The notes beneath the pieces were generated by a model. That model saw nothing but the letters and a program-made list of their open reading frames with translations, had not been told where the DNA came from and searched no databases. The position numbers and the translations under genes are program-made. This document shows, piece by piece, positions 844 to 27,048 of a stretch of 64,000 bases of DNA; within the stretch, counting starts at the first letter, position 1; every line of letters starts with the position of its first letter. Location: sequence record NC_042128.1; one strand, given 5' to 3'. The stretch comes from Escherichia phage RCS47.

Positions 844-2759
844 GCCGCTACCCCCGCTTTCTGGATTGCTACCAGCAGATCAGCCAGGTGGCGAGCAGCG
901 CCATTAACCAGCTCTTCGTTTTCCTCAAAACGTCCGGCAGCCTGAAGGGCTGCAATCGCTTCCCGGACATTGCCCCGGGCGTTACGGATCTCCGCCATGT
1001 CAGTGCTTTGCATATCCATCACGTTATTGAGATATTCAATGGCTTTATTAGCCTCTGCATCTGCTTCGCTAACCGTTTCATCAGGCTGTGCCGGGGCCGG
1101 TTCTGGCTGAGTAATCTCACCGACTTCGGCCTGCAATGCATTGATCATGCTCTGCACCATTTTCTCGGTGCCAGCGCCCCCCGGAAACGCAATATTGGGG
1201 AAAGTTTTTTGAAACTGAGTCTTCAGCATTACTCGGAACTCGTCTGGTGAGCTGGTGGCCAGCTCCAGAGCTTTTTGTGCATATTTGCCAAACGGACCAT
1301 TAGTAAGTGTCTTCGCCAGGAAGTCGAAAGAATCCTCGCGAGGCAATAACTTCAGGTCGTACTCACTCATTTGCTGATCAGAAAGCGGGGTATCGTAAGT
1401 AGCAATGCCGTAGCGTGCATATTCATAATACGGGTCACCTTCATCAGGGCGCGGCAGAATTGCTTTGTTACCTTCAGGTATTGCGCCAGGGGCCGCCGGA
1501 CGCATTTGCAGGGCATATCGATATGCACCTACAGAGACTTCTGGTTCAGGCGAAGAGCTACCGGTATCCTCCGCTGGTTCAGGTTCGACGTTTTCCGGTT
1601 TATGTTCTTCTGGTTGGACCAGGTATTCCGATACATTACCCGCTTTATAGGCTTTAAACAGCTTGCCGATCGCATCTGCCATGTCCACACCCTGTATGGA
1701 TTTAGCCTTGATCATGTACACGCTGCCATCCGAATCGGTTAACTGGATATACCCTTCACCGTCCTCAATGAATTGCTTCATTGATGCACCATTACTGAGC
1801 GTCACTTCCCCGTTCATATGCATACGATTTTTGATACTTGCAAGGCGATCCGTCATCGCGCGAGAGTGTCCACCAGTCATCCCCGCAGGAGCAATGGTTT
1901 CGCGCCCACCAGTGCGATTGAGCTGATCAATCTCCGTCTGCAAACGCTCATTCTCTTCATAAAGAGAATCCGCTTCCGATGCAACAGCGTTAATTTTCTG
2001 CTCCAGATCTGCCTTCTGCCCTTCTACCGCTGCCACCTGATCCGCGAGGTCGCTCATGGCATCCTCTTTCTGGTCACTGTCAGCCTGTAGTTGGGTTATT
2101 TCATCAACAAGGGCTTTTTTCTTCTTCTGCGCACGCTGGAATTTTGCCGAGTTTTTCTCTGCAAGGTTGGCAAGTTTCATGGTGACCTGCGCCAGCGTCA
2201 TATCACGTCCACTCATCGGAGCAACGGTGTGAGTAACGTCTTTTTTATTCAGTAAGAACTGGAAAGCAACCAGCGTATCGCTATTGGTGATCCGGTTTTC
2301 CGCTGTCGGGCTATGAAACAGAATGCTGATAGTCTGACCATCACTGAGCGGAATAATGGCAGGCAGGACTGGCAGCCCGTTAACGTTACGTGCCCGGCCA
2401 ATTTCAGCGCCGCCGATCGCGCGCGCGCCGCTCTGGGCCACATCCCCCGTTTTATCACTCCCCGCAGAGATTCCGGTACCATTCAGCTTCTGGTTCAATG
2501 CCCGGACAAATGCCTGCATGGTCCGGTGTAACTGCAAACGAGTAGAACTAATCGCCTCCAGTAAATCCGTAGCACACCAGTGGATCGGCGTGTCATAGAA
2601 GAACGTAGCCTCGATTTCCTCCAGGGTGTTGGATTCCGTCATCAGATAGCGGCCCTCACCGGCCATTAATGCGCGATATTCATCATCAGTCACTGGCGGG
2701 GGAAGCACGTCAAGCCCAGGTTTGATCGTCACCCCTTTATTGATATTGAACTGTTCCAT
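840..2759 (-). CDS. darA: DarA-like internal head / anti-restriction protein
   Basis: 639-aa ORF; shares a conserved segment (..KNSAKFQ..) and flanking similarity with the adjacent 203-aa protein, as expected for a darA/hdf pair; sits downstream of lydA/lydB-like genes. Confidence 0.5.
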   Translation of the reverse strand: MEQFNINKGVTIKPGLDVLPPPVTDDEYRALMAGEGRYLMTESNTLEEIEATFFYDTPIHWCATDLLEAISSTRLQLHRTMQAFVRALNQKLNGTGISAGSDKTGDVAQSGARAIGGAEIGRARNVNGLPVLPAIIPLSDGQTISILFHSPTAENRITNSDTLVAFQFLLNKKDVTHTVAPMSGRDMTLAQVTMKLANLAEKNSAKFQRAQKKKKALVDEITQLQADSDQKEDAMSDLADQVAAVEGQKADLEQKINAVASEADSLYEENERLQTEIDQLNRTGGRETIAPAGMTGGHSRAMTDRLASIKNRMHMNGEVTLSNGASMKQFIEDGEGYIQLTDSDGSVYMIKAKSIQGVDMADAIGKLFKAYKAGNVSEYLVQPEEHKPENVEPEPAEDTGSSSPEPEVSVGAYRYALQMRPAAPGAIPEGNKAILPRPDEGDPYYEYARYGIATYDTPLSDQQMSEYDLKLLPREDSFDFLAKTLTNGPFGKYAQKALELATSSPDEFRVMLKTQFQKTFPNIAFPGGAGTEKMVQSMINALQAEVGEITQPEPAPAQPDETVSEADAEANKAIEYLNNVMDMQSTDMAEIRNARGNVREAIAALQAAGRFEENEELVNGAARHLADLLVAIQKAGVAA

Positions 2760-2760
2760 G

Positions 2761-3372
2761 TTAATTTCCTGCTTTCAGTTGCTTAAGACGGCGTTTGAGT
2801 TCGCCATTTCGGGCCTTTTCGTTATTGAGTCGGCCTGTCTCCTTATCCAGCTTCGCCCGCAAATCAGTGATCTGCTGTTGATTGAAAGACACCGAGTTCT
2901 GCGCTGATTTATAAGCGGCAACCACCTGAGCATTCCGCTGTTTTGCCTCTTGCAGGCGCTGAAAGTTGGATTTTACTGCCGGTTTCTTGTCTACCGGATT
3001 GGCAACACGTTTCGCTTTGGCGATCAGTGATTTCTGGAATTTTGCGGAGTTTTTGCGGGCCGCTTGCCCCATGACGGTACCAAGCGTCTTGATATCCGGC
3101 GACTGAGCGTTAGGAATAGCTTTTCCATTCAGCCTCACAGACGATATATCGCCAGTATCGTTTACCTGTATGGCAAGAATTTGTCCGTCGTTAAGAACCA
3201 GCTTTGCGGTTTTAACTTTAACGCCATCTTTCGTTGTTGCGCGGTTGCTGGAGTCAACCTCAATTACCGTAACACCGGTTTTATTGATCGCCGCGATAAG
3301 GGATTTCAGCCCCTTTTCATTAACCTGGTCAAAATCGACCGTTGCATACTTATTTCTCGTCATCTGACACAT
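2761..3372 (-). CDS. hdf: Hdf-like protein (homolog of DarA fragment)
   Basis: 203 aa with internal similarity to the central part of the 639-aa DarA-like protein; coiled-coil C-terminus. Confidence 0.5.
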   Translation of the reverse strand: MCQMTRNKYATVDFDQVNEKGLKSLIAAINKTGVTVIEVDSSNRATTKDGVKVKTAKLVLNDGQILAIQVNDTGDISSVRLNGKAIPNAQSPDIKTLGTVMGQAARKNSAKFQKSLIAKAKRVANPVDKKPAVKSNFQRLQEAKQRNAQVVAAYKSAQNSVSFNQQQITDLRAKLDKETGRLNNEKARNGELKRRLKQLKAGN

Positions 3373-3793
3373 CCTGTGCGAGATTTATTACGTAACTTCT
3401 GCGGATTTGCTGAGTAACAGGGAAAATCCGATACAACGGGTTAATGAACGAGTCGCCATGCGTAACCATGACGTTGAAATGCCACAGCCGTTCTCCTTTA
3501 CCCATATATTCAGTGGGTATGTACAACCATTCACTGTTTTCGCCCTGTTCAGCCGACGTCAGACAACGTTGTTCGCCTTCAATCACTGTCGTTGGCTTCT
3601 GAACATCGCGGATCCAATATCTGACCGTTGCGCCGCGCAAAAACGGGAATTTAGACCGGTATTTGAACGGCACCCGGATGAAACCCGGTTTAATTTCCAC
3701 ATCACCAAGTTCTAAATGCGTGATGTCCTTGCGTTTTAGCAAATAGCGATCGGCTAAGGCTAACGCAAGAACGCATACACCCCAGCCAATCAT
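3350..3793 (-). CDS. lydB: LydB-like lysis regulator (antiholin candidate)
   Basis: 147 aa with N-terminal hydrophobic segment; start overlaps the holin stop (ATGA); assignment is positional. Confidence 0.4.
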   Translation of the reverse strand: MIGWGVCVLALALADRYLLKRKDITHLELGDVEIKPGFIRVPFKYRSKFPFLRGATVRYWIRDVQKPTTVIEGEQRCLTSAEQGENSEWLYIPTEYMGKGERLWHFNVMVTHGDSFINPLYRIFPVTQQIRRSYVINLAQDVSDDEK

Positions 3794-4119
3794 TTCCCGC
3801 CTCCCTTTTTCACCAAACTTGTAAGAACATTCAGAATGCTATCGATATTCACTCGTTTCATCCCTGAAATCACCTCATGACCGTTATTGCTGGCTATCGT
3901 TACCATTAAGTACGTAATTGATAACTCCCAGCCCTCGTGTTGCCCCAATAGGTACGCCACCGCGCCAGCTGTCACTGCAACAAAGATCTCCGTAACCAAT
4001 CCCAACAAATTGCCAGACTGGCGACCGTCTCGGACATCCATCAGGAACGTGCCTATCCCACCAATTACTGAAAGCAGGAGCGCAATAGCAACTGGAGCTA
4101 ATTCCTGTGTGTCAAGCAC
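3790..4119 (-). CDS. lydA: holin (LydA-like)
   Basis: 109 aa with predicted transmembrane helices and charged C-terminus; first gene of the operon. Confidence 0.5.
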   Translation of the reverse strand: MLDTQELAPVAIALLLSVIGGIGTFLMDVRDGRQSGNLLGLVTEIFVAVTAGAVAYLLGQHEGWELSITYLMVTIASNNGHEVISGMKRVNIDSILNVLTSLVKKGGGK

Positions 4120-4179
4120 AAGTTCCCTCCTACGTTGTCAGGAGGTAATGGTATGCAAAGTAACTTCTCATCTGGTTGT

Positions 4180-4464
4180 TCATAATTTGCCAATACATTC
4201 GTAAATCAAGTGAAAAACCCATATTTTGGTTATTCTTAATACAAAATGGCTATTCCAACTACATATCAAAAAAGCAACCACATCCAAAAATGAGTTTCCC
4301 CACTGAACTTCTGCAAGACAAAAACCAACAAAACCACCTTTTATGGCAAGCAGCCATGCTTCAAGCCAATGTAAAAAACATGGCTTATAAGCTCCACGCC
4401 TAACTCCAGTAAGAAATAAATAGGTTCCACTAATAATGGACATTAAAAAAATCAAAATCTGCAT
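4180..4464 (-). CDS. small hydrophobic membrane protein
   Basis: 94-aa ORF preceded by a strong RBS (GGGAGGAG); very hydrophobic; AT-rich codon usage suggests an accessory gene. Confidence 0.4.
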   Translation of the reverse strand: MQILIFLMSIISGTYLFLTGVRRGAYKPCFLHWLEAWLLAIKGGFVGFCLAEVQWGNSFLDVVAFLICSWNSHFVLRITKIWVFHLIYECIGKL

Positions 4465-4585
4465 AAGCTCCTCCCGGATCTAACAAAAATCAAGCAGGAA
4501 CCTATTCAGATTGTTATTTCTGTGCATAACGCTTTGTTCTTTAAAATTCGCAGACTCATAAGAACAACGCATTAGAGTAAAAATC

Positions 4586-5147
4586 ATGCTGATCGGCTAT
4601 GTACGCGTATCAACAAATGAACAAAACACTGCTTTGCAACGAAATGCCCTTGAAAGCGCAGGATGTGAGCTAATTTTTGAGGATAAGGCGAGCGGCAAAC
4701 AGACTGAACGCCCTGGGCTAAAAAAGGTTTTGCGTATGCTTTCCAGAGGTGACACCCTGGTCGTATGGAAGTTAGATCGTCTTGGGCGCAGCATGCGTCA
4801 CTTGGTTGTGCTGGTGGAAGAGCTGCGTGACAGAGGAATTAATTTCCGGAGTCTCACTGACTCTATCGACACCAGTACACCAATGGGGCGCTTTTTCTTT
4901 CACGTAATGGGGGCGCTGGCAGAAATGGAACGTGAGCTTATCGTTGAACGTACACGCGCTGGACGTGATGCAGCTCGCGCAGAAGGTCGTAATAGGTGGG
5001 CGTCGGCCTAAATACCAAGAAGAAACATGGCAGCAAATGCGGCGATTGCTGGAGAATGGCATCCCCCGTAAGCAGGTTGCAATCATCTATGATGTGGCTG
5101 TTTCCACGCTTTATAAGAAGTTTCCGGCGTCGTCATTTCAATCCTAA
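4586..5147 (+). pseudogene. cin: Cin/Gin/Pin/Hin-family serine DNA invertase, interrupted by a +1 frameshift near 4990-4992
   Basis: N-terminal resolvase catalytic domain (MLIGYVRVSTNEQ...) in frame 1 stops at 5011; C-terminal HTH domain (GGRRPK...IPRKQVAIIYDVAVSTLYKK) continues in another frame from ~4980 to 5147; removing one A from AA at 4991-4992 restores ...AEGR-IGGRRPK... Confidence 0.8.
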
Positions 5148-5164
5148 ACCTTGGTTTAAGAGAA
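5139..5164. other. recombination crossover site (cixL/gix-like, 26 bp)
   Basis: caatcctaaacc-tt-ggtttaagagaa: two 12-bp half-sites around a 2-bp core, matching the Hin/Gin/Cin site pattern; overlaps the invertase stop codon. Confidence 0.7.
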
Positions 5165-5297
5165 CTCGGTACCAGCGGTGAAAAGATCCCCCTGTTGAGC
5201 ACGGCTAACACATGGAGTGCGCGCCAGACTTTCAACGGAGGGATCACCGGGGCACTGACAGGGAACGCCGACACCGCGACGAAATTGAAAACAGCAC
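5153..5297. repeat. left inverted repeat of invertible segment
   Basis: near-identical reverse complement of 9013-9157 (encodes ...GEKIPLLSTANTWSARQTFNGGITGALTGNADTATKLKTA in both fiber variants). Confidence 0.85.
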
Positions 5298-6496
5298 GCA
5301 CTATTGGCGGTGTGGCATTTGATGGTACTGCGAATATTAATTTACCTGGTGTTAACGTTGCGGGTAATCAGAATACATCCGGTAACGCGGCTACAGCGAC
5401 CAAGTTGCAGACAGCATGTACTATCAACGGCGTCTCGTTTGATGGTTCTAAAAATATTGAGCTAACGGCGGAAGATTTAAATCTACAGGAATTTATTAAT
5501 AAAGCAAATAATGCCGTTCAGCGTTCAGGCGATATCTTGTCCGGCGGACTTACTTTTGAAAACGGCTCAATCCTTGCCTGGATTCGAAATACTGACTGGG
5601 CAAAGATTGGATTTAAAAATGATGCCGACAGCGACACAGATTCATACATGTGGTTTGAAACAGGCGACAACGGCAATGAATATTTCAAATGGAGAAGCAA
5701 ACAAAGCACCACAACAAAAGACCTGATGAATCTTAAATGGGATGCTTTGTCTGTTCTTGTTAAAGCCCTTTTCAGCAGTGAAGTAAAAATATCGACAGTC
5801 AATGCACTGAGGATATTTAATTCATCTTTTGGTGCCATTTTTCGCCGTTCTGAAGAATGCCTGCATATCATCCCTACACGAGAGAATGAGGGGGAAAATG
5901 GTGATATAGGGCCACTACGTCCCTTTACGCTTAATCTCAGAACTGGCCGCATAACTATGGGGCATGGTCTGGATGTTACAGGAGATATAACAACTAACGC
6001 CTGGGTGTATGCAAACAGGTTTGCTATTAATAGTGGCTCAACCTCATGGATTGATATGCGAAACCAGAATGTCATTTTTGGTAGAAACGCAGTATCAACA
6101 AGTTCTGCGCAGGCTTTGTTAAGACAAGACCATGCAGAACGCAAATTTTTTGTCGGTGGACTTGGTAACTACCAGTTTGGTTTTTACATGATTAATAACT
6201 CAAGGACAGCCAATGGCACCGATGGTCAGGCGTACATGGATAATAACGGTAACTGGCTTTGTGGCTCGCAAGTTATTCCTGGCAACTATGGCAATTTTGA
6301 TTCCAGATATGTGAGAGATGTTCGCCTGGGTACGCGAGTTGTTCAATTGATGGCGCGTGGTGGTCGTTATGAAAAAGCCGGACACGTAATTACCGGATTA
6401 AGAATCATTGGTGAAGTAGATGGCGATGATGAAGCCATCTTCAGGCCAATACAAAAATACATCAATGGCACATGGTATAACGTCGCACAGGTGTAA
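5153..6496 (+). CDS. alternative tail-fiber C-terminal variable segment (Sv'), no independent start; expressed only after inversion
   Basis: open frame runs from the crossover site through the inverted repeat; shares N-terminal ~45 aa with the fiber currently fused in the - orientation, then diverges. Confidence 0.65.
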   Translation, partial: GLRELGTSGEKIPLLSTANTWSARQTFNGGITGALTGNADTATKLKTARTIGGVAFDGTANINLPGVNVAGNQNTSGNAATATKLQTACTINGVSFDGSKNIELTAEDLNLQEFINKANNAVQRSGDILSGGLTFENGSILAWIRNTDWAKIGFKNDADSDTDSYMWFETGDNGNEYFKWRSKQSTTTKDLMNLKWDALSVLVKALFSSEVKISTVNALRIFNSSFGAIFRRSEECLHIIPTRENEGENGDIGPLRPFTLNLRTGRITMGHGLDVTGDITTNAWVYANRFAINSGSTSWIDMRNQNVIFGRNAVSTSSAQALLRQDHAERKFFVGGLGNYQFGFYMINNSRTANGTDGQAYMDNNGNWLCGSQVIPGNYGNFDSRYVRDVRLGTRVVQLMARGGRYEKAGHVITGLRIIGEVDGDDEAIFRPIQKYINGTWYNVAQV

Positions 6497-7027
6497 ATGA
6501 TGCAGCATTTAAAAAATATTAAGTCTGGAAATCCTAAAACGAAAGAACAATATCAGCTAACAAAGAATTTTGATGTTATCTGGTTATGGTCCGAAGACGA
6601 TAAAAACTGGTATGAGGAAGTGAAAAACTTTCAGCCAGACACAATAAAGATTGTTTACGATGCAAATAATATTATTGTCGCCATCACTAAAGATGCCTCC
6701 ACGCTTAACCCTGAAGGTTTTAGCGTCGTTGAGGTTCCTGATATTACAGCCAACCGCCGCGCTGATGATTCAGGAAAGTGGATGTTTAAGGATGGAGCTG
6801 TAGTTAAACGGATTTATACGGCAGACGAACAGCAACAACAGGCCGAATCACAAAAGGCCGCATTGCTTTCCGAAGCTGAATCAGTCATCCAGCCGCTGGA
6901 ACGCGCTGTCAGGCTGAATATGGCAACAGACGAGGAACGCACACGACTGGAAGCATGGGAACGCTACAGTGTTCTGGTCAGCCGTGTGGATACGGCAAAT
7001 CCTGAATGGCCACAAAAGCCTGAATAA
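6497..7027 (+). CDS. tail fiber assembly protein (alternative, U')
   Basis: 176 aa; N-terminus [23 protein letters not shown]..., paralog of the 177-aa protein on the opposite strand; typical Tfa chaperone. Confidence 0.8.
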
Positions 7028-7056
7028 AAATTAAGGCCCGCTATCGGGCCTTGTCT
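7028..7056. terminator. bidirectional rho-independent terminator between convergent tfa genes
   Basis: hairpin aaggcccg-ctat-cgggcctt with flanking A/T runs. Confidence 0.5.
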
Positions 7057-7589
7057 CATTCAGGTTGTTCGGGAAATGTTACTGGCAGGCTGGAGGTGTC
7101 TGTAGATTCGACTTTCTGCGCATAGAGCATCCACTCAGTTAATTTTTGTTTATTCTCGTCGGAAATGATGCCCAGCCGTAGCTGTGAGTCCCATAGCTGG
7201 GTTTTATCCCTGACAAGTTGCAACAGGCTTTGTTTTTCATTCTCTGCCTGCTGCCTTTGTTCCTCCTCGGTATAAGTTCGCTTTATCACTACGCCATCTT
7301 TGAACATCCATTTACCCGAAATATCAGCCCGGCGATTTGCTGTAATATCAGGAACCTCAACGACGCTTGCGCCTTCTGGATTAATTGCTGAAACATCCTT
7401 TTCAATACAAATAATAACGTCGTTGTGGTCATAGACCATTTTCAACGTATCAGGCTGAAAGTTCTTTTGTTCCTCATACCAGTTTTTCCCATCCTCTGTA
7501 TAAAGCCATTTGATGTTAAATTGTTTCGTTAGCTGGTATTGCTCTTTTGTTTTAGGGTTGCCAGCAGTAATGTTTTTTAAGTGCATCAT
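7056..7589 (-). CDS. tail fiber assembly protein (U)
   Basis: 177 aa Tfa-family chaperone immediately downstream of the expressed tail fiber. Confidence 0.8.
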   Translation of the reverse strand: MMHLKNITAGNPKTKEQYQLTKQFNIKWLYTEDGKNWYEEQKNFQPDTLKMVYDHNDVIICIEKDVSAINPEGASVVEVPDITANRRADISGKWMFKDGVVIKRTYTEEEQRQQAENEKQSLLQLVRDKTQLWDSQLRLGIISDENKQKLTEWMLYAQKVESTDTSSLPVTFPEQPE

Positions 7590-18689: not shown

Positions 18690-19280
<591 letters not shown>

Positions 19281-19336
19281 TTAACAGATTCTACGAGTTG
19301 TCATTTGTGACAGTATGCTCGCAATCGTAGTGATTA

Positions 19337-19876
19337 CTACCACCAACTGCTAGCTTTCTTCTCTCTAGCTTTTCCTTCGCTTTGCAGTAAATCTTTACTT
19401 CCTGTAGAAATATTTCTATTTGCATCAGCCTCAGACTGAATTACATCTGTCTTAGCTGCTCTCTCCTTCAACTCCTGCTCTATAAAATCGTTTTCTCGCT
19501 GGACACGAGCCGCTTTTGCTTGCAGTTCGAGTTTCATGCTTTCGAGTTGCAGCTTGCGAAGCTCATCCTCATAAGCTTGATCTCGCTTCTTGTCATTTGC
19601 TAGCTCGGCTTCTCGTTTTGCTCTACGTTCATTTTCTGCAGCAACACGCTGTTTTTCGCGTGCAGCAGCGGCAGATGCTGCTTTTTCTCTTCTAATACGT
19701 TCAGCTTGTGCTTGTTGGCGAATAAGTTCTTTTCTGGCATCCTCAGCTTGCTGCTCTTTAGCTCGCCCTTCATTTTCCGCTTGAGCAATAGCAGCAATTT
19801 GACTTTGCAACGAGTTAGCCAAGGCAGTGCCTACACTAAACGTAGAAAAGATTAGAAATAAAATAATTTTATTCAT
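19337..19876 (-). CDS. secreted coiled-coil protein (signal peptide; TolA-like Ala/Glu/Arg/Lys-rich repeats)
   Basis: 179 aa; N-terminal signal sequence MNKIILFLIFSTFSVGTALA; AT-rich codon usage. Confidence 0.5.
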   Translation of the reverse strand: MNKIILFLIFSTFSVGTALANSLQSQIAAIAQAENEGRAKEQQAEDARKELIRQQAQAERIRREKAASAAAAREKQRVAAENERRAKREAELANDKKRDQAYEDELRKLQLESMKLELQAKAARVQRENDFIEQELKERAAKTDVIQSEADANRNISTGSKDLLQSEGKAREKKASSWW

Positions 19877-19879
19877 AAA

Positions 19880-20401
19880 TTATTTCTTTTCTGGACAAGT
19901 AGCATTTGGCTGAATTCGAGTTTCATTATCTTTAGTTGAAATAAGCACAGCAAGCCCCGTTGTAAACTGGCATGCTTTACCAACTTGAGTTGAAGTGAAC
20001 ACCTTAGTTCCTTCTTTATAAGTCAGTGAAACACCTTCAACAATTGTTTTATCACTAACCAAAGAACCAGCCGCTGCACCAAGAGCCGCACCACCAGTAC
20101 CGCCAGCTACAGCACCCAGTGTCGATGTGCCTTTAACATTATAACCGGCAACGCCCCCAGCAACAGCTCCCAGTACCGCACCAAATGTCTGTGCCGCTTC
20201 TTTATTAGCTTTATTATCAACTTTCACTTTAGCTGGAAGCACAGAGATAATATTGACTGTCTTTGTTTCCTGCTTCGAATTCAATTGAGCGGTATCATAA
20301 ACATCGGCAGCATAATCAGCACCGCTAGATTGACACCCAGAAAGAAGAATTGCAGATACAACAAGAGCGCATAAAGTATACTTTTTAGACATAAGAATCA
20401 T
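19880..20401 (-). CDS. lipoprotein with glycine-zipper domain
   Basis: 173 aa; lipobox LLSGC; Gly/Ala-rich GxxxG repeats (AVAGGVAG...AVAGGTGGAALGAAAG). Confidence 0.55.
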   Translation of the reverse strand: MILMSKKYTLCALVVSAILLSGCQSSGADYAADVYDTAQLNSKQETKTVNIISVLPAKVKVDNKANKEAAQTFGAVLGAVAGGVAGYNVKGTSTLGAVAGGTGGAALGAAAGSLVSDKTIVEGVSLTYKEGTKVFTSTQVGKACQFTTGLAVLISTKDNETRIQPNATCPEKK

Positions 20402-20682
20402 CCAAGAAAAACAAAAACCGGCGAGAAGTTACCACGAGAACGGAAAGTAAACAAGAATACTCCCATTGACTTATATCAATTAATCAACTTTTTATAAGCA
20501 ACCCCTAACTTATTGTGTATAGCTGAAAAGTCAGAGACAAGTTCACCATCTGCATTATTTCTTAAGTTAATAGTTTATTGCTAACTTAATTTATGTATCG
20601 ACTATTGATATCCATCTTAAAGTAACAATATCCCTCTGCATTATTTTTCATCACAAATAATACTTCTATTGCACGACACTCA

Positions 20683-20699
20683 TCTGCTCTAATAAATTT
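20683..20699 (+). promoter_or_regulatory. C1-repressor operator-like 17-mer (15/17 to recalled consensus ATTGCTCTAATAAATTT)
   Basis: tctgctctaataaattt upstream of the ImmI-like region. Confidence 0.45.
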
Positions 20700-21013
20700 G
20701 TATTTTTAAGTCGTGAATGCTATCTTTTCGCATCATATTGACCTTTTAATCGTTCAGGCTTATAGTTTCGCCGTCGTAGCAAATTCTGCGACCGGGTTTA
20801 GCAGCCTGAATGATTGTGCGGACAGCCGCAGATATCCGATATTGCGGTATTTTTGTGTCCGTAAAACCGCGTTACGCCCAAATTATGGTGGGGCGTGATG
20901 GGGAGGCTTCGGCCTGCTGGTTTCACAATCGCCAGTCTGCTAACCCCGTCACGTCCTGCCACCTGTTTAGCAGCGGGTAGCAGGTTGTTAAACCTGATTG
21001 TGAGGCCGTAACT

Positions 21014-24120: not shown

Positions 24121-25560
24121 TGGAGTCACCTGGCGTTTTCAGCGAAAAACCGCCGAGAACCCTCGCCCAATGCGGGCGGGGAGGAAAGGCGGAAAAGCCC
24201 GAAGGGCTTTAAAAATATTATTACGGTGTTAGCATAAAAACCTGTACCAATGAGCGGTGACTATGTTAAGAGCAACAAAAGTACGCATCTACCCGACACC
24301 AGAACAGGCTGAATTTATCAACGCCCAGTTCGGTGCAGTGCGTTTTGTGTACAACAAAGCTCTGCATATCAAGAAACATTCTTACCAGCGGCACCGCGTA
24401 AATTTAAACCCGCGTAAAGACCTCAAACCACTGCTTGCAGTGGCGAAGAAATCCCGCCGGTATGGATGGCTTAAAGAATATGATTCTATTGCGTTGCAGC
24501 AGGCGGTAATTAACCTCGACGTGGCTTTTTCTAACTTTTTCAATCCGAAACTGAAAGCAGGTAAACCTACCTTTAAAAGTAAACACGGCAGACAATCTAG
24601 CTATCATTGTGTTGGCATAAAAGTCCTTGATGGTGCGATAAAAATACCGAAAATCTTGCCGATTGAAGCGCGTTTACATCGTGAAATTACGGGAATGCTG
24701 AAAAGTATCACGTTGAGCCGCAGCGCAACCGGGAAATACTACGCGTCGTTACTCTGTGACGACGGGATGGAAGCGCCGGCAAAGCCCGCACTGATATCAA
24801 ATGTGACAGGGCTGGATATGGGGCTGGCGCATTTTGTCATCAAATCGGACGGCAATAAAATTGCCAGTCCCCGCCACCTAATCAATGCAAGTCGCAACCT
24901 GCGCCGGAAGCAGAAAGCACTGTCCCGTAAGAAAAAAGGGAGCGCAAACAGGCGCAAAGCCAGAATACAACTTGCAGCCGTTCACGAACGGGTAGCCAGT
25001 GCCCGTGCCGATTTCCAGCACAAGTTATCTCGCGCAATTGTTGACGAAAACCAAGCGGTAATTGTCGAAACATTGAAAACGGCAAATATGATGAAAAATC
25101 ACCATCTGGCTCGTGCGATAGGCGATGCTGGATGGTCTGGATTCATCACAAAACTGGAATACAAAGCAACAGAGAAAGGTGTGCATCTGGTGAAACTGGA
25201 TCAATGGTTCGCCAGTTCGAAAACCTGCCACTGCTGCGGTCACAAAATGTCGGAGATGCCATTACATAAGCGCATCTGGCAGTGTCCAGAGTGTGGAGTT
25301 GAACATGACCGCGATATCAATGCGGCGCTCAACATCAAACGCAAGGGCATACTGGAATTACAAGCGGCGGGACTCGTCGTTTCTGCCCATGGAGGCCAGC
25401 GTAAATCCGTCACACAGACGGTTGCGGCTTAAGAAGTGGGAAGCCTCGCCCGACAGGGCGGGGAGCAGTCACTATGGATTTTCTTTGGCGCGGTCTGGCC
25501 ATTAGGGGTCATGTTTGCTGCAACGTTTCTTCTGATGTGGATATTCACCCTTCCAGGTGA
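24121..25560 (+). mobile_element. IS200/IS605-family element encoding only TnpB (right boundary uncertain, between ~25470 and ~25770)
   Basis: tnpB flanked by GC-rich subterminal hairpins (ctcgccc..gggcgggg motif on both sides); no tnpA ORF. Confidence 0.7.
24263..25432 (+). CDS. tnpB: TnpB (RNA-guided RuvC-like nuclease of IS200/IS605 family)
   Basis: ~389 aa; N-terminal ...ATKVRIYPTPEQ..., C-terminal zinc finger CHCCGH...CPECG and ...DRDINAALNI; start taken at ATG 24263. Confidence 0.85.
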   Translation: MLRATKVRIYPTPEQAEFINAQFGAVRFVYNKALHIKKHSYQRHRVNLNPRKDLKPLLAVAKKSRRYGWLKEYDSIALQQAVINLDVAFSNFFNPKLKAGKPTFKSKHGRQSSYHCVGIKVLDGAIKIPKILPIEARLHREITGMLKSITLSRSATGKYYASLLCDDGMEAPAKPALISNVTGLDMGLAHFVIKSDGNKIASPRHLINASRNLRRKQKALSRKKKGSANRRKARIQLAAVHERVASARADFQHKLSRAIVDENQAVIVETLKTANMMKNHHLARAIGDAGWSGFITKLEYKATEKGVHLVKLDQWFASSKTCHCCGHKMSEMPLHKRIWQCPECGVEHDRDINAALNIKRKGILELQAAGLVVSAHGGQRKSVTQTVAA

Positions 25561-25770
25561 TTTCTATAGAAAAAAAGCCAGACATTGATACACCCGCTGC
25601 GGTGTGCTTGAGGCTATCTGCTTCAGGCATTCCCCGAAAAGCAGATAGAAGAAAGCCCCAGTAAACATTATGCGTCCCGCACAACGCTTAACATTAACCG
25701 GGGCCATACCTATGCTTAGCGTGCTTAGATTAATCCTCTCCTCTGTCAAGGAGCAAGGAATTTTTTACTG

Positions 25771-26367
25771 CTATGCCGCCTTTCCAGTTATGGATTCAGC
25801 GACCAGAACAACCCCATGCTTACTTCGATCTGGGTGTTCACTCCATATCTCGGATTCAGGAATACTTACCCCGTCATAGCAAACACGTTCGCCGTCAAAC
25901 GGGTAATACTGAGCGGCATCGGTGTCGAGGATAAACACTTTTAGCTCGGAAGAGCGACGGGCGATATGTTGCCAAAGAGCTTTTCCACCTTCGTATTGCT
26001 CATTATCACTGAGCAAAACAACACCAGCTTTTGAGGCTACGGTTTCGTAAACAAAAGTAGCTAAACCGACATCCCGGACAGTTCCATCAACCACGATACC
26101 TTCAATCTGGGCAACATCGCTATCCTCCCAGAACTTCCTTACCAGTACGCCTTCAAGCTGCGGGCGACGTTGAAGTTCAAGAGTAGCGACAACCTTATGC
26201 CGCATATCACCATCGATAACAGAAGGCGCAGCCTCTATTACAGCTGCAAATGGGGTTTTGGAATCCCATATAACCTGGTAAAGCACACCCTGGATGGTAA
26301 CTCCGTCCAGGATCGAAAATCGACGAGCGACAGTACCCGGGGAGTACGACATTGGAATCACAGCCAT
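25771..26367 (-). CDS. hypothetical protein (pmgF-like by position)
   Basis: 198 aa from internal Met with AAGGGGGA RBS. Confidence 0.4.
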   Translation of the reverse strand: MAVIPMSYSPGTVARRFSILDGVTIQGVLYQVIWDSKTPFAAVIEAAPSVIDGDMRHKVVATLELQRRPQLEGVLVRKFWEDSDVAQIEGIVVDGTVRDVGLATFVYETVASKAGVVLLSDNEQYEGGKALWQHIARRSSELKVFILDTDAAQYYPFDGERVCYDGVSIPESEIWSEHPDRSKHGVVLVAESITGKAA

Positions 26368-26489
26368 TTTAGAGTCCCCCTTTAACAGTACAGGCACAAA
26401 CATCTACCTCAATAATTGTAGTTTATTAGAACATTAATAATCTAACATAAAACTCCAGACAATGTTATCGATGCATTTTTATATAAAAT

Positions 26490-26520
26490 AGTTATAAAAA
26501 AAGCTCCCGAAGGAGCTTTA
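26490..26520 (-). terminator. rho-independent terminator of the sheath/capsid operon
   Basis: hairpin aaagctcc-cgaa-ggagcttt followed by a T-run on the - strand. Confidence 0.55.
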
Positions 26521-26538
26521 AAATACAAGGGATGACTC

Positions 26539-27048
26539 TTAATCCCACTCAATCCAGTTGTAGACGATACGAAGTGACGGGCGCACAGCGGCAGTCACAT
26601 CTTCGGTACTAAAGTCGATTGCATCACTGTAGATTTTGCAGTCCAACATTTCAATTGTTGTAGCAGCTTTTGTCACAGCGTTAACCCCGGAAGATTTGGA
26701 TTCAGGGGTAGCAGCCATCGTGATATCAACATAGTCCTTCGCCGCAATGCGATCCTTAATGAACTGAAGAATATCGCCTTCGATAGTCTCCACGCACTGG
26801 ACCTGGATTTCCCCAGAGTTTCGAATTGGTCCGTGCTGGTTGAACTTCACACCATTCGGACCATAGTCCTCCACATCCTCGCGAGTCATTTCAGGGATTT
26901 GCGACGTACGAACAAGTACACTGATATCTTCATAGCCTGCAAAAGTGAGCTGGAATTCAGAAGATACCAGTCGTTCGCCTTTGGCCGCGTTGGCAGTATA
27001 GCGGCCCTTAATAAATTTACGGTTTCCCTTAGTGTTATTGTGCCCCAT
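26539..27048 (-). CDS. tail tube-like / baseplate tube-family protein
   Basis: 169 aa; size and C-terminal pattern (...YNWIEWD) resemble T4 gp19-type tube proteins; weak. Confidence 0.35.
   Translation of the reverse strand: MGHNNTKGNRKFIKGRYTANAAKGERLVSSEFQLTFAGYEDISVLVRTSQIPEMTREDVEDYGPNGVKFNQHGPIRNSGEIQVQCVETIEGDILQFIKDRIAAKDYVDITMAATPESKSSGVNAVTKAATTIEMLDCKIYSDAIDFSTEDVTAAVRPSLRIVYNWIEWD

Follow-up and report, generated by a model that had tools for sequence, protein, structure and literature searches.

Comparative analysis of a stretch of 64,000 nucleotides of Escherichia phage RCS47 (sequence record NC_042128.1; the whole stretch is further referred to as the window) revealed two adjacent open reading frames (ORFs) on the minus strand at positions 19337-20401 that, as judged from their sequences, are diverged paralogues of the host core operon yfgH-yfgI and not relatives of the sim genes found at this place in phage P1. 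The first ORF encodes a YfgH-like lipoprotein of 173 amino acids (aa) and the second a YfgI-like exported protein of 179 aa belonging to the family DUF5384. Both are real genes and not chance ORFs, because the DUF5384 profile is matched with an expectation value (E) of 3e-43, the ratio of nonsynonymous to synonymous substitution rates (dN/dS) amounts to 0.06-0.10, and the cassette in which they reside is conserved at 99% or more in 168 plasmids. The two genes form a self-contained module acquired by horizontal transfer, and there is about an even chance that it acts as a prophage-encoded extra stabiliser of the outer membrane. A previous interpretation of the DNA without database searches (the sequence-only reading) had delimited both ORFs correctly; it missed their identity as a duplicated host operon, which is already annotated in the phage P7 record (upf50.0/upf50.5).

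Relation to the chromosomal operon yfgH-yfgI

The lipoprotein is identical to Escherichia coli YfgH at 115 of 171 positions (67%; E = 6e-73), ungapped and over the full length, and the helical protein is 47% identical to E. coli YfgI (E = 9e-46). The latter also matches Pfam family PF17358 (DUF5384) over profile positions 4-145 of 145 (147.8 bits; cut-off 25) and belongs to PHROG 1094. On the chromosome, the corresponding operon (b2505-b2506) lies beside guaA, with the same order and architecture of its genes and the same sizes (172/179 aa). Conserved in the phage copy are the C-terminal motif of YfgI as well as, in the lipoprotein, the lipobox, the glycines of the zipper, and both C-terminal cysteines. 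Indeed, a copy of the whole pair with 69% DNA identity was found on the chromosome in 5420 of the 5426 complete E. coli genomes, and an extra copy of the P7 type was present in 182 genomes, nearly always plasmid-borne. Apart from being carried on a phage-plasmid, in the sim slot, the phage copy differs from the chromosomal one in its GC content (42-43% versus 47-49%), a non-homologous leader, and a gap between the two genes of 3 nucleotides (nt) instead of 15 nt. The stop codon of the lipoprotein gene and the start codon of the next one are thus separated by a single triplet (TAA-TTT-ATG), suggesting a tightly (translationally) coupled pair. Because synonymous sites are saturated and the GC content deviates, the phage alleles constitute an old, separate lineage and not recent copies of the E. 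coli gene. In addition, the dN/dS values of 0.06-0.10 hold for the mobile alleles where estimable and indicate that both genes are kept functional by strong purifying selection.

The pair moves and evolves as a unit, since a DUF5384 gene was found directly downstream of the yfgH-type gene in the window as well as in nine out of nine other contexts inspected, and since the divergence of both genes rises in step across seven loci (identities of the YfgH-type/YfgI-type proteins of 88/81, 86/78, 75/67, 73/53, 67/48, 62/44, and 62/43%). Diverged pairs also occur in non-P1 settings, namely in an island rich in insertion sequences (IS), on contigs of plasmid size that have a Rep3 replicon, and on ColE1 plasmids of 7.5 kb, where the pair adjoins a CptA-like phosphoethanolamine transferase gene and the DUF5384 gene is truncated. 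This presence on non-phage elements argues for a benefit that is independent of P1 biology.

Position and boundaries of the cassette

The window corresponds to a P1-like (Punavirus) genome of the P7 type. In pairwise alignments, homology with P1 is lost after position 19309, just past the late promoter LPsit, and returns at position 20685. The latter position falls within the left edge of the C1 operator Op(c4), where the right-hand recombination junction is located. The same interval in P1 comprises approximately 1.5 kb with simC, simB, and simA, in the place of which 1375 bp are present in the window; the cassette replaces P1 simC-simB-simA exactly, with the same position, orientation, and boundaries. 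To its left, pmgC, tub, pmgB, and sit (encoding Sit of 1140 aa) are transcribed from LPsit, and to its right, the C1 operator, the a1b1 targets, and the C4 antisense RNA are followed by icd, ant1/2, and kilA. The location between tail genes and the immunity region, as well as the correspondence to the place of the superimmunity functions in P1, both brought forward by the sequence-only reading, were hence correct.

The lower GC content proposed earlier was found too, with 40.4% for the cassette compared with 47.6% for the window as a whole and 48.1% on either side of the cassette. A GC content this low occurs in only 0.3% of all 1375-bp segments, each of which overlaps the cassette; the latter is the lowest stretch of approximately 1.4 kb of the 64-kb window. 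The resemblance to a moron can be maintained as well, as the composition deviates from that of the flanks and the slot is polymorphic among close relatives, the yfgHI pair being present in 168 of 509 P1-like plasmids and sim-type or related (Ro-type) DNA in 265-270 of them.

The outer-membrane lipoprotein

The precursor of the YfgH-like protein possesses a lipobox of which the cysteine (C23) is invariant and the preceding glycine (G22) nearly invariant among 56 homologues. Since glutamine and not aspartate is found at position +2, sorting to the outer membrane is predicted by the established +2 rule. The mature protein would consist of a helical hairpin, in which G74, G78, G82, G104, and G108 are invariant among the same homologues, followed by a small beta domain (Table 1). 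The tip of the hairpin (approximately residues 86-100) is the most variable segment of the mature protein, with an entropy peak at residues 91-100. The glycine-zipper lipoprotein described by the sequence-only reading was therefore recognised, both from the lipobox LSGC and from the GxxxG/A repeats in the predicted hairpin.

The only significant match among solved structures was obtained with Foldseek and concerned SlyB (7ojf_A; E = 3.2e-6; probability 1.00; template modelling (TM) scores of 0.49/0.59, the latter on the target), spanning 139 columns of the 138-residue target at 25% identity. SlyB (7OJF/7OJG) is a PhoPQ-regulated glycine-zipper lipoprotein of the outer membrane that forms rings around outer-membrane proteins (OMPs) and lipid patches. 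A lipid anchor, a glycine-zipper hairpin that spans the membrane, and a small beta domain are common to both proteins, and the beta domain of the phage lipoprotein aligns with the periplasmic domain of SlyB. Besides the low identity, the two differ in that a DUF5384 gene invariably accompanies the gene of a YfgH-type protein, whereas SlyB has not been described with such a partner; moreover, loss of yfgH is suppressed by clsA mutations and loss of slyB by mla mutations (bioRxiv 10.64898/2025.12.22.696046). A search of solved structures by sequence gave no match for the lipoprotein or the 179-aa protein, and the Pfam profile Gly-zipper 2TM was matched below its threshold (18.2 bits; cut-off 24.2).

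A TraT-like surface protein, conferring surface exclusion in conjugation or resistance to serum (complement), was envisaged and is highly improbable. TraT of F-like plasmids is likewise a ring-forming outer-membrane lipoprotein with an alpha-helical element in the membrane, and it stems from a chromosomal family co-opted by mobile elements (PMC11733297). A weak similarity to the TraT profile (PF05818; E = 7e-5) exists over the hairpin of the phage protein (residues 59-145), many homologues have precomputed weak TraT matches, and TraT structures rank second to fourth in the Foldseek list. However, this Pfam match scores 23.1 bits against a gathering cut-off of 31 and covers only positions 74-160 of the 214-position profile, and the structures concerned (9e2v, 9fsm, and 9fs5) are matched with E values of 0.14-0.33, TM scores of 0.18-0.22, and root-mean-square deviations of 13-16 Å, compared with a significant match for SlyB. 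Furthermore, the lipoprotein is approximately 70 residues shorter and lacks the large surface beta-sandwich domain of TraT, TraT has no DUF5384 partner, and P1-like phage-plasmids are mostly non-conjugative (151 of the 168 plasmids with a P7-type cassette are non-mobilizable). Because SlyB is the sole significant fold match and the TraT matches are sub-threshold in Pfam and non-significant in fold, membership of the TraT family was rejected, and the protein is best filed as a putative outer-membrane lipoprotein of the YfgH/SlyB type.

Two start codons are conceivable for the lipoprotein gene. The first ATG of the ORF is located at position 20401 (MILMSKK...), but an alternative ATG at position 20392 (MSKK...) has a GGA upstream at a better Shine-Dalgarno distance and yields a more typical n-region. 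The 31-residue sig_peptide indicated in the P7 record disregards the lipobox.

The helical partner

The YfgI-like protein carries a predicted Sec-type signal peptide, and the conserved N-terminus of the mature protein among 57 homologues (SLQxQ) starts at residue 21-22, right after the predicted cleavage site. Together with the lipobox of the lipoprotein, this agrees with the export of both proteins claimed previously. The AlphaFold2 (AF2) model consists of a single unbroken helix (residues 3-178) with a predicted local distance difference test (pLDDT) score of 88, and the mature chain of 159 residues would measure approximately 24 nm if wholly helical. The width of the E. coli periplasm, as seen by cryo-tomography, is of the same order. 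The charged segment of residues 35-95 displays the highest column entropy and a partial occupancy in the alignment, homologues ranging from 145 to 199 aa in length, whereas the C-terminal region is conserved and contains the invariant residues D104, A141, S148, A150, D151, R154, and G159. Of the secreted coiled-coil protein put forward by the sequence-only reading, the signal peptide holds, but the coiled coil does so only in part, as a heptad-like hydrophobic pattern is restricted to residues 96-140 approximately and residues 35-95 rather resemble a single-helix spacer. A helical rod or tether with a C-terminal part capable of coiled-coil formation fits the model better.

A putative additional stabiliser of the outer membrane

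The function of the phage pair may be approached through that of its chromosomal counterpart. E. coli YfgH fractionates with the outer membrane and stabilises it under stress; its deletion causes sensitivity to sodium dodecyl sulfate/ethylenediaminetetraacetic acid (SDS/EDTA), a higher uptake of N-phenyl-1-naphthylamine (NPN), loss of OMPs under stress, and increased blebbing, the loss of yfgH being suppressed by clsA mutations (bioRxiv 10.64898/2025.12.22.696046). In addition, YfgH is induced upon knock-down of lpxC, lptD, or bamA, which its overexpression rescues (bioRxiv 10.64898/2025.12.22.696046), and an aggravating genetic interaction between yfgH and lptD has been reported (PMC3219608). 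The Salmonella Typhi orthologues srgIL are SdiA-regulated, which is not the case for an E. coli fusion (PMC11619404).

By analogy, the phage yfgHI pair could provide the prophage-carrying cell with an extra outer-membrane stabiliser, the most likely reading, which is credited with roughly equal odds of being right or wrong. The hairpin of the lipoprotein would insert into the outer membrane and oligomerise into rings, as deduced from E. coli YfgH and SlyB. Such rings may corral OMPs and lipid patches and thereby confer resistance to detergent, chelator, and stress on the assembly of lipopolysaccharide (LPS) and OMPs. The helical partner would have a periplasmic role, perhaps that of a tether or ruler which binds by means of the conserved C-terminal region. 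Expression from the prophage would supply an extra, separately regulated dose, making the outer membrane of the carrier tougher and less permeable by lysogenic conversion, whereas an effect on incoming phages would be a by-product. The envelope-modifying role that the sequence-only reading held possible thus finds good support in the yfgH-yfgI homology, the SlyB-like fold, and the outer-membrane stabilisation shown for YfgH (bioRxiv 10.64898/2025.12.22.696046).

Several points weigh against this stabilising role. Firstly, the SlyB-like rings of YfgH itself have been modelled only (bioRxiv 10.64898/2025.12.22.696046). Secondly, the monomer model of the lipoprotein is of low confidence (mean pLDDT of 56), as expected for the subunit of a membrane oligomer. 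Thirdly, the phage partner retains 47% identity to YfgI, for which a phenotype with DNA damage and nalidixic acid is cited (PMC11619404), and this divergence might reflect an altered function. Fourthly, nearly every host already possesses yfgHI, and there is no obvious need for a simple extra dose. Fifthly, a scan of the 283-bp leader gave no sigma-70 promoter on the coding strand with at least 9 of 12 consensus positions. Lastly, the other alleles of the slot, namely sim and a third allele with a Sit-derived segment, point to phage-directed functions.

Of the P1-like phage-plasmids in PLSDB, about one in three possesses the module, and many such elements transfer resistance genes among E. coli and Salmonella strains from humans and livestock. 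If the toughening of the outer membrane is true, it would represent an unrecognised lysogenic-conversion trait affecting detergent and bile tolerance as well as antibiotic permeability. Either way, the cassette offers a natural diverged allele pair for the dissection of YfgH with its partner YfgI (DUF5384).

Superinfection exclusion and the sim slot

Superinfection exclusion is the known function of P1 sim (PMC9177967, citing Kliem and Dreiseikelmann 1989), and the yfgHI cassette might alternatively be a dedicated superinfection-exclusion device that functionally replaces sim and blocks P1-like or other phages, which is possible but rather doubtful. Such exclusion would act after adsorption, either on the penetration of the outer membrane or on the periplasmic transit of the tail tube, Sit, or DNA. 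The cassette resembles sim in its interval, orientation, boundaries, low GC content, dispensability (the sim slot being dispensable in P1; PMC10695390), and signal-peptide products, and simABC is listed among eight variable low-GC regions of P1-like phage-plasmids (PMC9603915). All three alleles of the slot encode solely Sec-exported proteins, one of them with a Sit-like segment of 47 residues (E = 7e-9) that is a plausible decoy. Furthermore, the phage alleles are old, distinct lineages and not recent copies of host genes; the hairpin tip, the most variable segment of the mature lipoprotein, would face outwards if the SlyB topology holds; and a precedent is provided by TraT, a ring lipoprotein of chromosomal origin that plasmids have co-opted to achieve surface exclusion (PMC11733297).

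On the other hand, there is no DNA or protein similarity to the sim locus, only the flanks aligning with P1. Neither protein is similar to SimA, SimB, SimC, or Sit, neither matches a PADLOC-DB family at E ≤ 0.01, and the yfgHI and sim loci fall into different PHROG families. Similarly, no new domain was acquired relative to the chromosomal proteins, the low dN/dS of the whole genes does not point to an arms race, and the same pair occurs on non-phage elements. The case for exclusion is one of position, and positional analogy is not functional evidence. The superinfection-exclusion candidate of the sequence-only reading was consequently not substantiated, as no Sim similarity, no PADLOC match, and no Sit-like segment were found in the two proteins. 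Small outer-membrane lipoproteins of phages that guard the infected or lysogenic cell from further infection do exist, such as Llp of T5 and Cor of phi80 and N15. Unlike the yfgHI products, they bind a single receptor (FhuA) and work on their own, lack a glycine-zipper hairpin, and do not represent a duplicated host operon.

Outer-membrane stabilisation and exclusion are compatible, as a denser outer membrane braced by rings could hinder tail penetration. A further-reaching proposal, which must be called unlikely, is that the cassette is a true functional sim allele, in which a nanodomain-forming lipoprotein of the SlyB type and a helical partner of periplasmic length, both derived from the chromosome, have been specialised against incoming phages at the outer membrane or periplasm. 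If true, at least three unrelated devices for exclusion at the envelope (SimBC, the Sit-mimic decoy, and YfgHI) would be exchanged at the sim interval. It would also mean a new use of SlyB-type ring lipoproteins, a phage counterpart of the plasmid co-option of TraT, and a first phenotype-linked handle on YfgI/DUF5384.

The third allele of the slot was found in phage vB_EcoM-Ro157c2YLVW (MH160767; L004, positions 2144-2818, minus strand) and encodes a periplasmic protein of 224 aa with a signal peptide. Its residues 131-177 are 49% identical (E = 7e-9) to residues 937-979 of Sit (GMRxxxVQGTLEERARGxGT), the gene for which is located in the window at positions 13666-17088 (minus strand), and a second short match concerns residues 1013-1026 of Sit. 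This protein looks like a periplasmic mimic of the injection/tape-measure protein Sit and is, on these matches, a plausible exclusion decoy. Such a segment is absent from both proteins of the cassette and from SimC. The adjoining ORF of 158 aa likewise encodes an exported protein. In P1, 50 residues of SimA (52 aa; L002, positions 5393-5551, minus strand) are 94% identical to the N-terminus of the Ro-type 224-aa protein, and the DNA of both phages is 94% identical over 256 bp, solely at the end proximal to c4. Hence, simA looks like a 5' remnant left at the insertion of simB-simC, and the correspondence of SimA to the first 50 residues of the Ro-type gene suggests that the P1 sim locus is itself recombinant.

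Expression signals

A function in the lytic phase, whereby late synthesis would hold the outer membrane together until lysis or guard against lysis from without, and so tune burst timing, is very unlikely. The cassette does lie directly upstream of the late tail operon in the same orientation, an outer-membrane lipoprotein with a periplasmic helical protein superficially recalls spanin pairs, and loss of YfgH raises blebbing (bioRxiv 10.64898/2025.12.22.696046). However, a position weight matrix (PWM) built from nine annotated late promoters of P7, which scored the real sites at 8.9-25 bits when left out one at a time, found no late promoter upstream of the pair (best score of -6.3 bits), LPsit being located downstream of the cassette. 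A candidate Lpa-type late promoter at position 20475 (minus strand), with 10 of 12 matches to a crude 12-position consensus, was rejected, as its PWM score of -6.3 bits is no better than that of shuffled sequences (P = 0.997). The cassette thus appears to fall outside the late regulon, which is consistent with expression outside the late lytic programme. In addition, the homologues are core chromosomal genes, and a spanin pair was rejected on topology and location, as the helical protein has a signal peptide with an A-x-A cleavage site and no inner-membrane anchor, the lipoprotein is a 151-aa protein with a membrane hairpin, unlike o-spanins, and the lysis genes of P1/P7 (lyz and lydA-E) are situated elsewhere.

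Manual inspection of the leader gave only sigma-70 candidates with approximately 8 of 12 matches. The leaders of eight alleles have no motif in common, and the phage leader is not conserved with that of chromosomal yfgH. This lack of a promoter in the leader scans, as well as the dispensability of the sim slot in P1 (PMC10695390), would fit a neutral passenger, i.e., hitch-hiking DNA without a current function for phage or host. Such a passenger is scarcely credible, given the intact ORFs, the dN/dS of 0.06-0.10 across deeply diverged alleles, the conservation of at least 99% in 168 Escherichia and Salmonella plasmids, and the tight gene coupling that has been kept.

A scan for intrinsic terminators found none. 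The sole structure 3' of the stop codon of the yfgI-like gene is a very stable RNA hairpin formed by a 12-bp inverted repeat around LPsit, which is backbone sequence common to P1. The repeat encloses the -10 region of LPsit, puts a second TAGAAT on the opposite strand, and is conserved in P1; the hairpin could terminate transcripts arriving from the cassette or render them more stable.

Table 1. Coordinates of the yfgHI cassette, its parts, and the adjoining regulatory sites in the window of phage RCS47.
Feature	Position	Strand	Basis and remarks
Substitution cassette relative to P1	19310..20684	.	1375 bp; P1 alignments, GC content
AT-rich leader, part of the cassette	20402..20684	-	283 bp, 32% GC
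yfgH-like gene (P7 upf50.5), putative outer-membrane lipoprotein precursor	19880..20401	-	173 aa; 67% identity to E. coli YfgH; Foldseek SlyB
Lipobox L20-S21-G22-C23	20333..20344	-	Read from sequence; Cys23 as predicted lipidated residue, Gln at +2
Predicted glycine-zipper helical hairpin, residues 64-113	20063..20212	-	AF2 helices H64-88 and H94-113; GxxxG/A repeats
Predicted C-terminal beta domain, residues 118-173	19883..20050	-	Strands 118-163 in the model; invariant C144 and C169
yfgI-like gene (P7 upf50.0), DUF5384 protein	19337..19876	-	179 aa; PF17358; begins 3 nt past the yfgH-like stop
Predicted Sec signal peptide, residues 1-20	19817..19876	-	MNK + hydrophobic core + A-L-A/N, cut after A-L-A
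Charged helical spacer, residues 35-95	19592..19774	-	48% charged, 8% hydrophobic; helix pLDDT >90
Conserved C-terminal region, residues 96-179	19340..19591	-	Ends in aromatic pair WW
Late promoter LPsit of the tail operon	19288..19307	-	P1 and P7 annotation; PWM 16.9 bits; directly downstream of the cassette
12-bp perfect inverted repeat	19263-19297		CTCGTAGAATCT / AGATTCTACGAG, 11-nt loop; RNA hairpin region z = -6.5
C1 operator Op(c4)	20683..20699	+	P7 annotation carried over by gap-free match; sequence TCTGCTCTAATAAATTT
immI a1b1 targets	20760-20812	+	Rfam RF03163, 54.6 bits, above gathering score
immI C4 antisense RNA	20881-20966	+	Rfam RF01695, 69.6 bits, above gathering score

Distribution and annotation in P1-like elements

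Over positions 19200-20750, the cassette region is 98.8% identical to that of phage P7 (AF503408), the lipoprotein being 100% identical, and 99.2-99.4% identical to that of SJ46, JL22, phi456, and faecal isolates of 'P1'. The tub-pmgC backbone was retrieved from 509 PLSDB plasmids, about one third of which (168) contain the P7-type cassette at 99% identity or more; these comprise 146 plasmids from Escherichia and 22 from Salmonella. Approximately 20 further PLSDB plasmids possess, at the same position, an allele of which the lipoprotein is 84% identical.

The cassette is thus already present in public records, be it loosely annotated, and belongs to known families (YfgH/SlyB-type and DUF5384). 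Nothing of substance distinguishes it from upf50.0/upf50.5 of P7, which also occur in SJ46, JL22, phi456, and many IncY phage-plasmids, and the P7 record already marks signal peptides and mentions that the genes are similar to putative membrane and lipoprotein genes of E. coli. A literature search found no paper discussing phage-borne yfgHI copies. Part of the current labels must be wrong. The lipoprotein gene is named DNA methyltransferase in the RefSeq records of P7 (NC_050152) and SJ46 (NC_031129) and in PHROG 1277, and the two cassette genes of phi456 (OR339795) are named minor tail protein and tail tip protein, which is incompatible with the lipobox, the homology to YfgH, and the fold resembling that of SlyB.

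Additional cargo was encountered in the slot. A P1-like contig of Escherichia albertii (L005, positions 5175-7298) carries a YfjT-family gene and a gene for an SH3_3-domain protein between the yfgHI-type pair and pmgC, and pLR-25_1 (L095, positions 3889-5148) carries a DUF559 (endonuclease-like) gene there, indicating that the sim interval accumulates accessory genes. P7 further contains a second outer-membrane gene of host type, the porin gene nmpC (L097, positions 25531-26646), where P1 has isaA-IS1-isaB. A tblastn search found no copy of nmpC in the window, which is collinear with P7 from P7 position 30685 on, the nmpC site falling outside it.

Related pairs in other contexts

The 7.5-kb ColE1-type plasmid pYLMB10c (NZ_CP073991; L094, positions 1947-4892) is an example of the small mobilisable plasmids with a diverged pair. 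Next to an IS1 element and a truncated CptA-like phosphoethanolamine transferase gene, not of the MCR family, it carries a yfgH-like gene encoding a protein 75% identical to that of the window, followed by the truncated DUF5384 gene; an LPS-modifying enzyme hence travels with the putative outer-membrane stabiliser pair. In E. coli GCA_005040235 (L011, positions 3104-6071), a 73%-identical yfgHI pair is located between prophage tail genes and a 424-aa PLDc_2 gene. This neighbour, of the phospholipase D/cardiolipin-synthase superfamily, may matter in view of the suppression of yfgH loss by clsA mutations.

Two approximately 100-kb contigs with diverged pairs (L007 and L012) were not called phage-plasmids, as neither had a megablast match to any deposited phage. 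Similarly, the idea that other phages also carry yfgHI was abandoned, as the pairs of TL-2011b and of some 60 IMG/VR contigs (66-69% identity) represent the chromosomal genes yfgH-yfgI-yfgG-pdeF at a prophage edge by guaA. Indeed, many prophages of 30-44 kb (TL-2011b, JQ011317, L010, positions 41360-44784; IMG/VR contigs L032-L093) end in yfgI-yfgH-yfgG-pdeF. These ends indicate an often-used insertion site between guaA and yfgI, with prophage boundaries drawn too far into the host DNA, dozens of them being cut at one point within yfgH.

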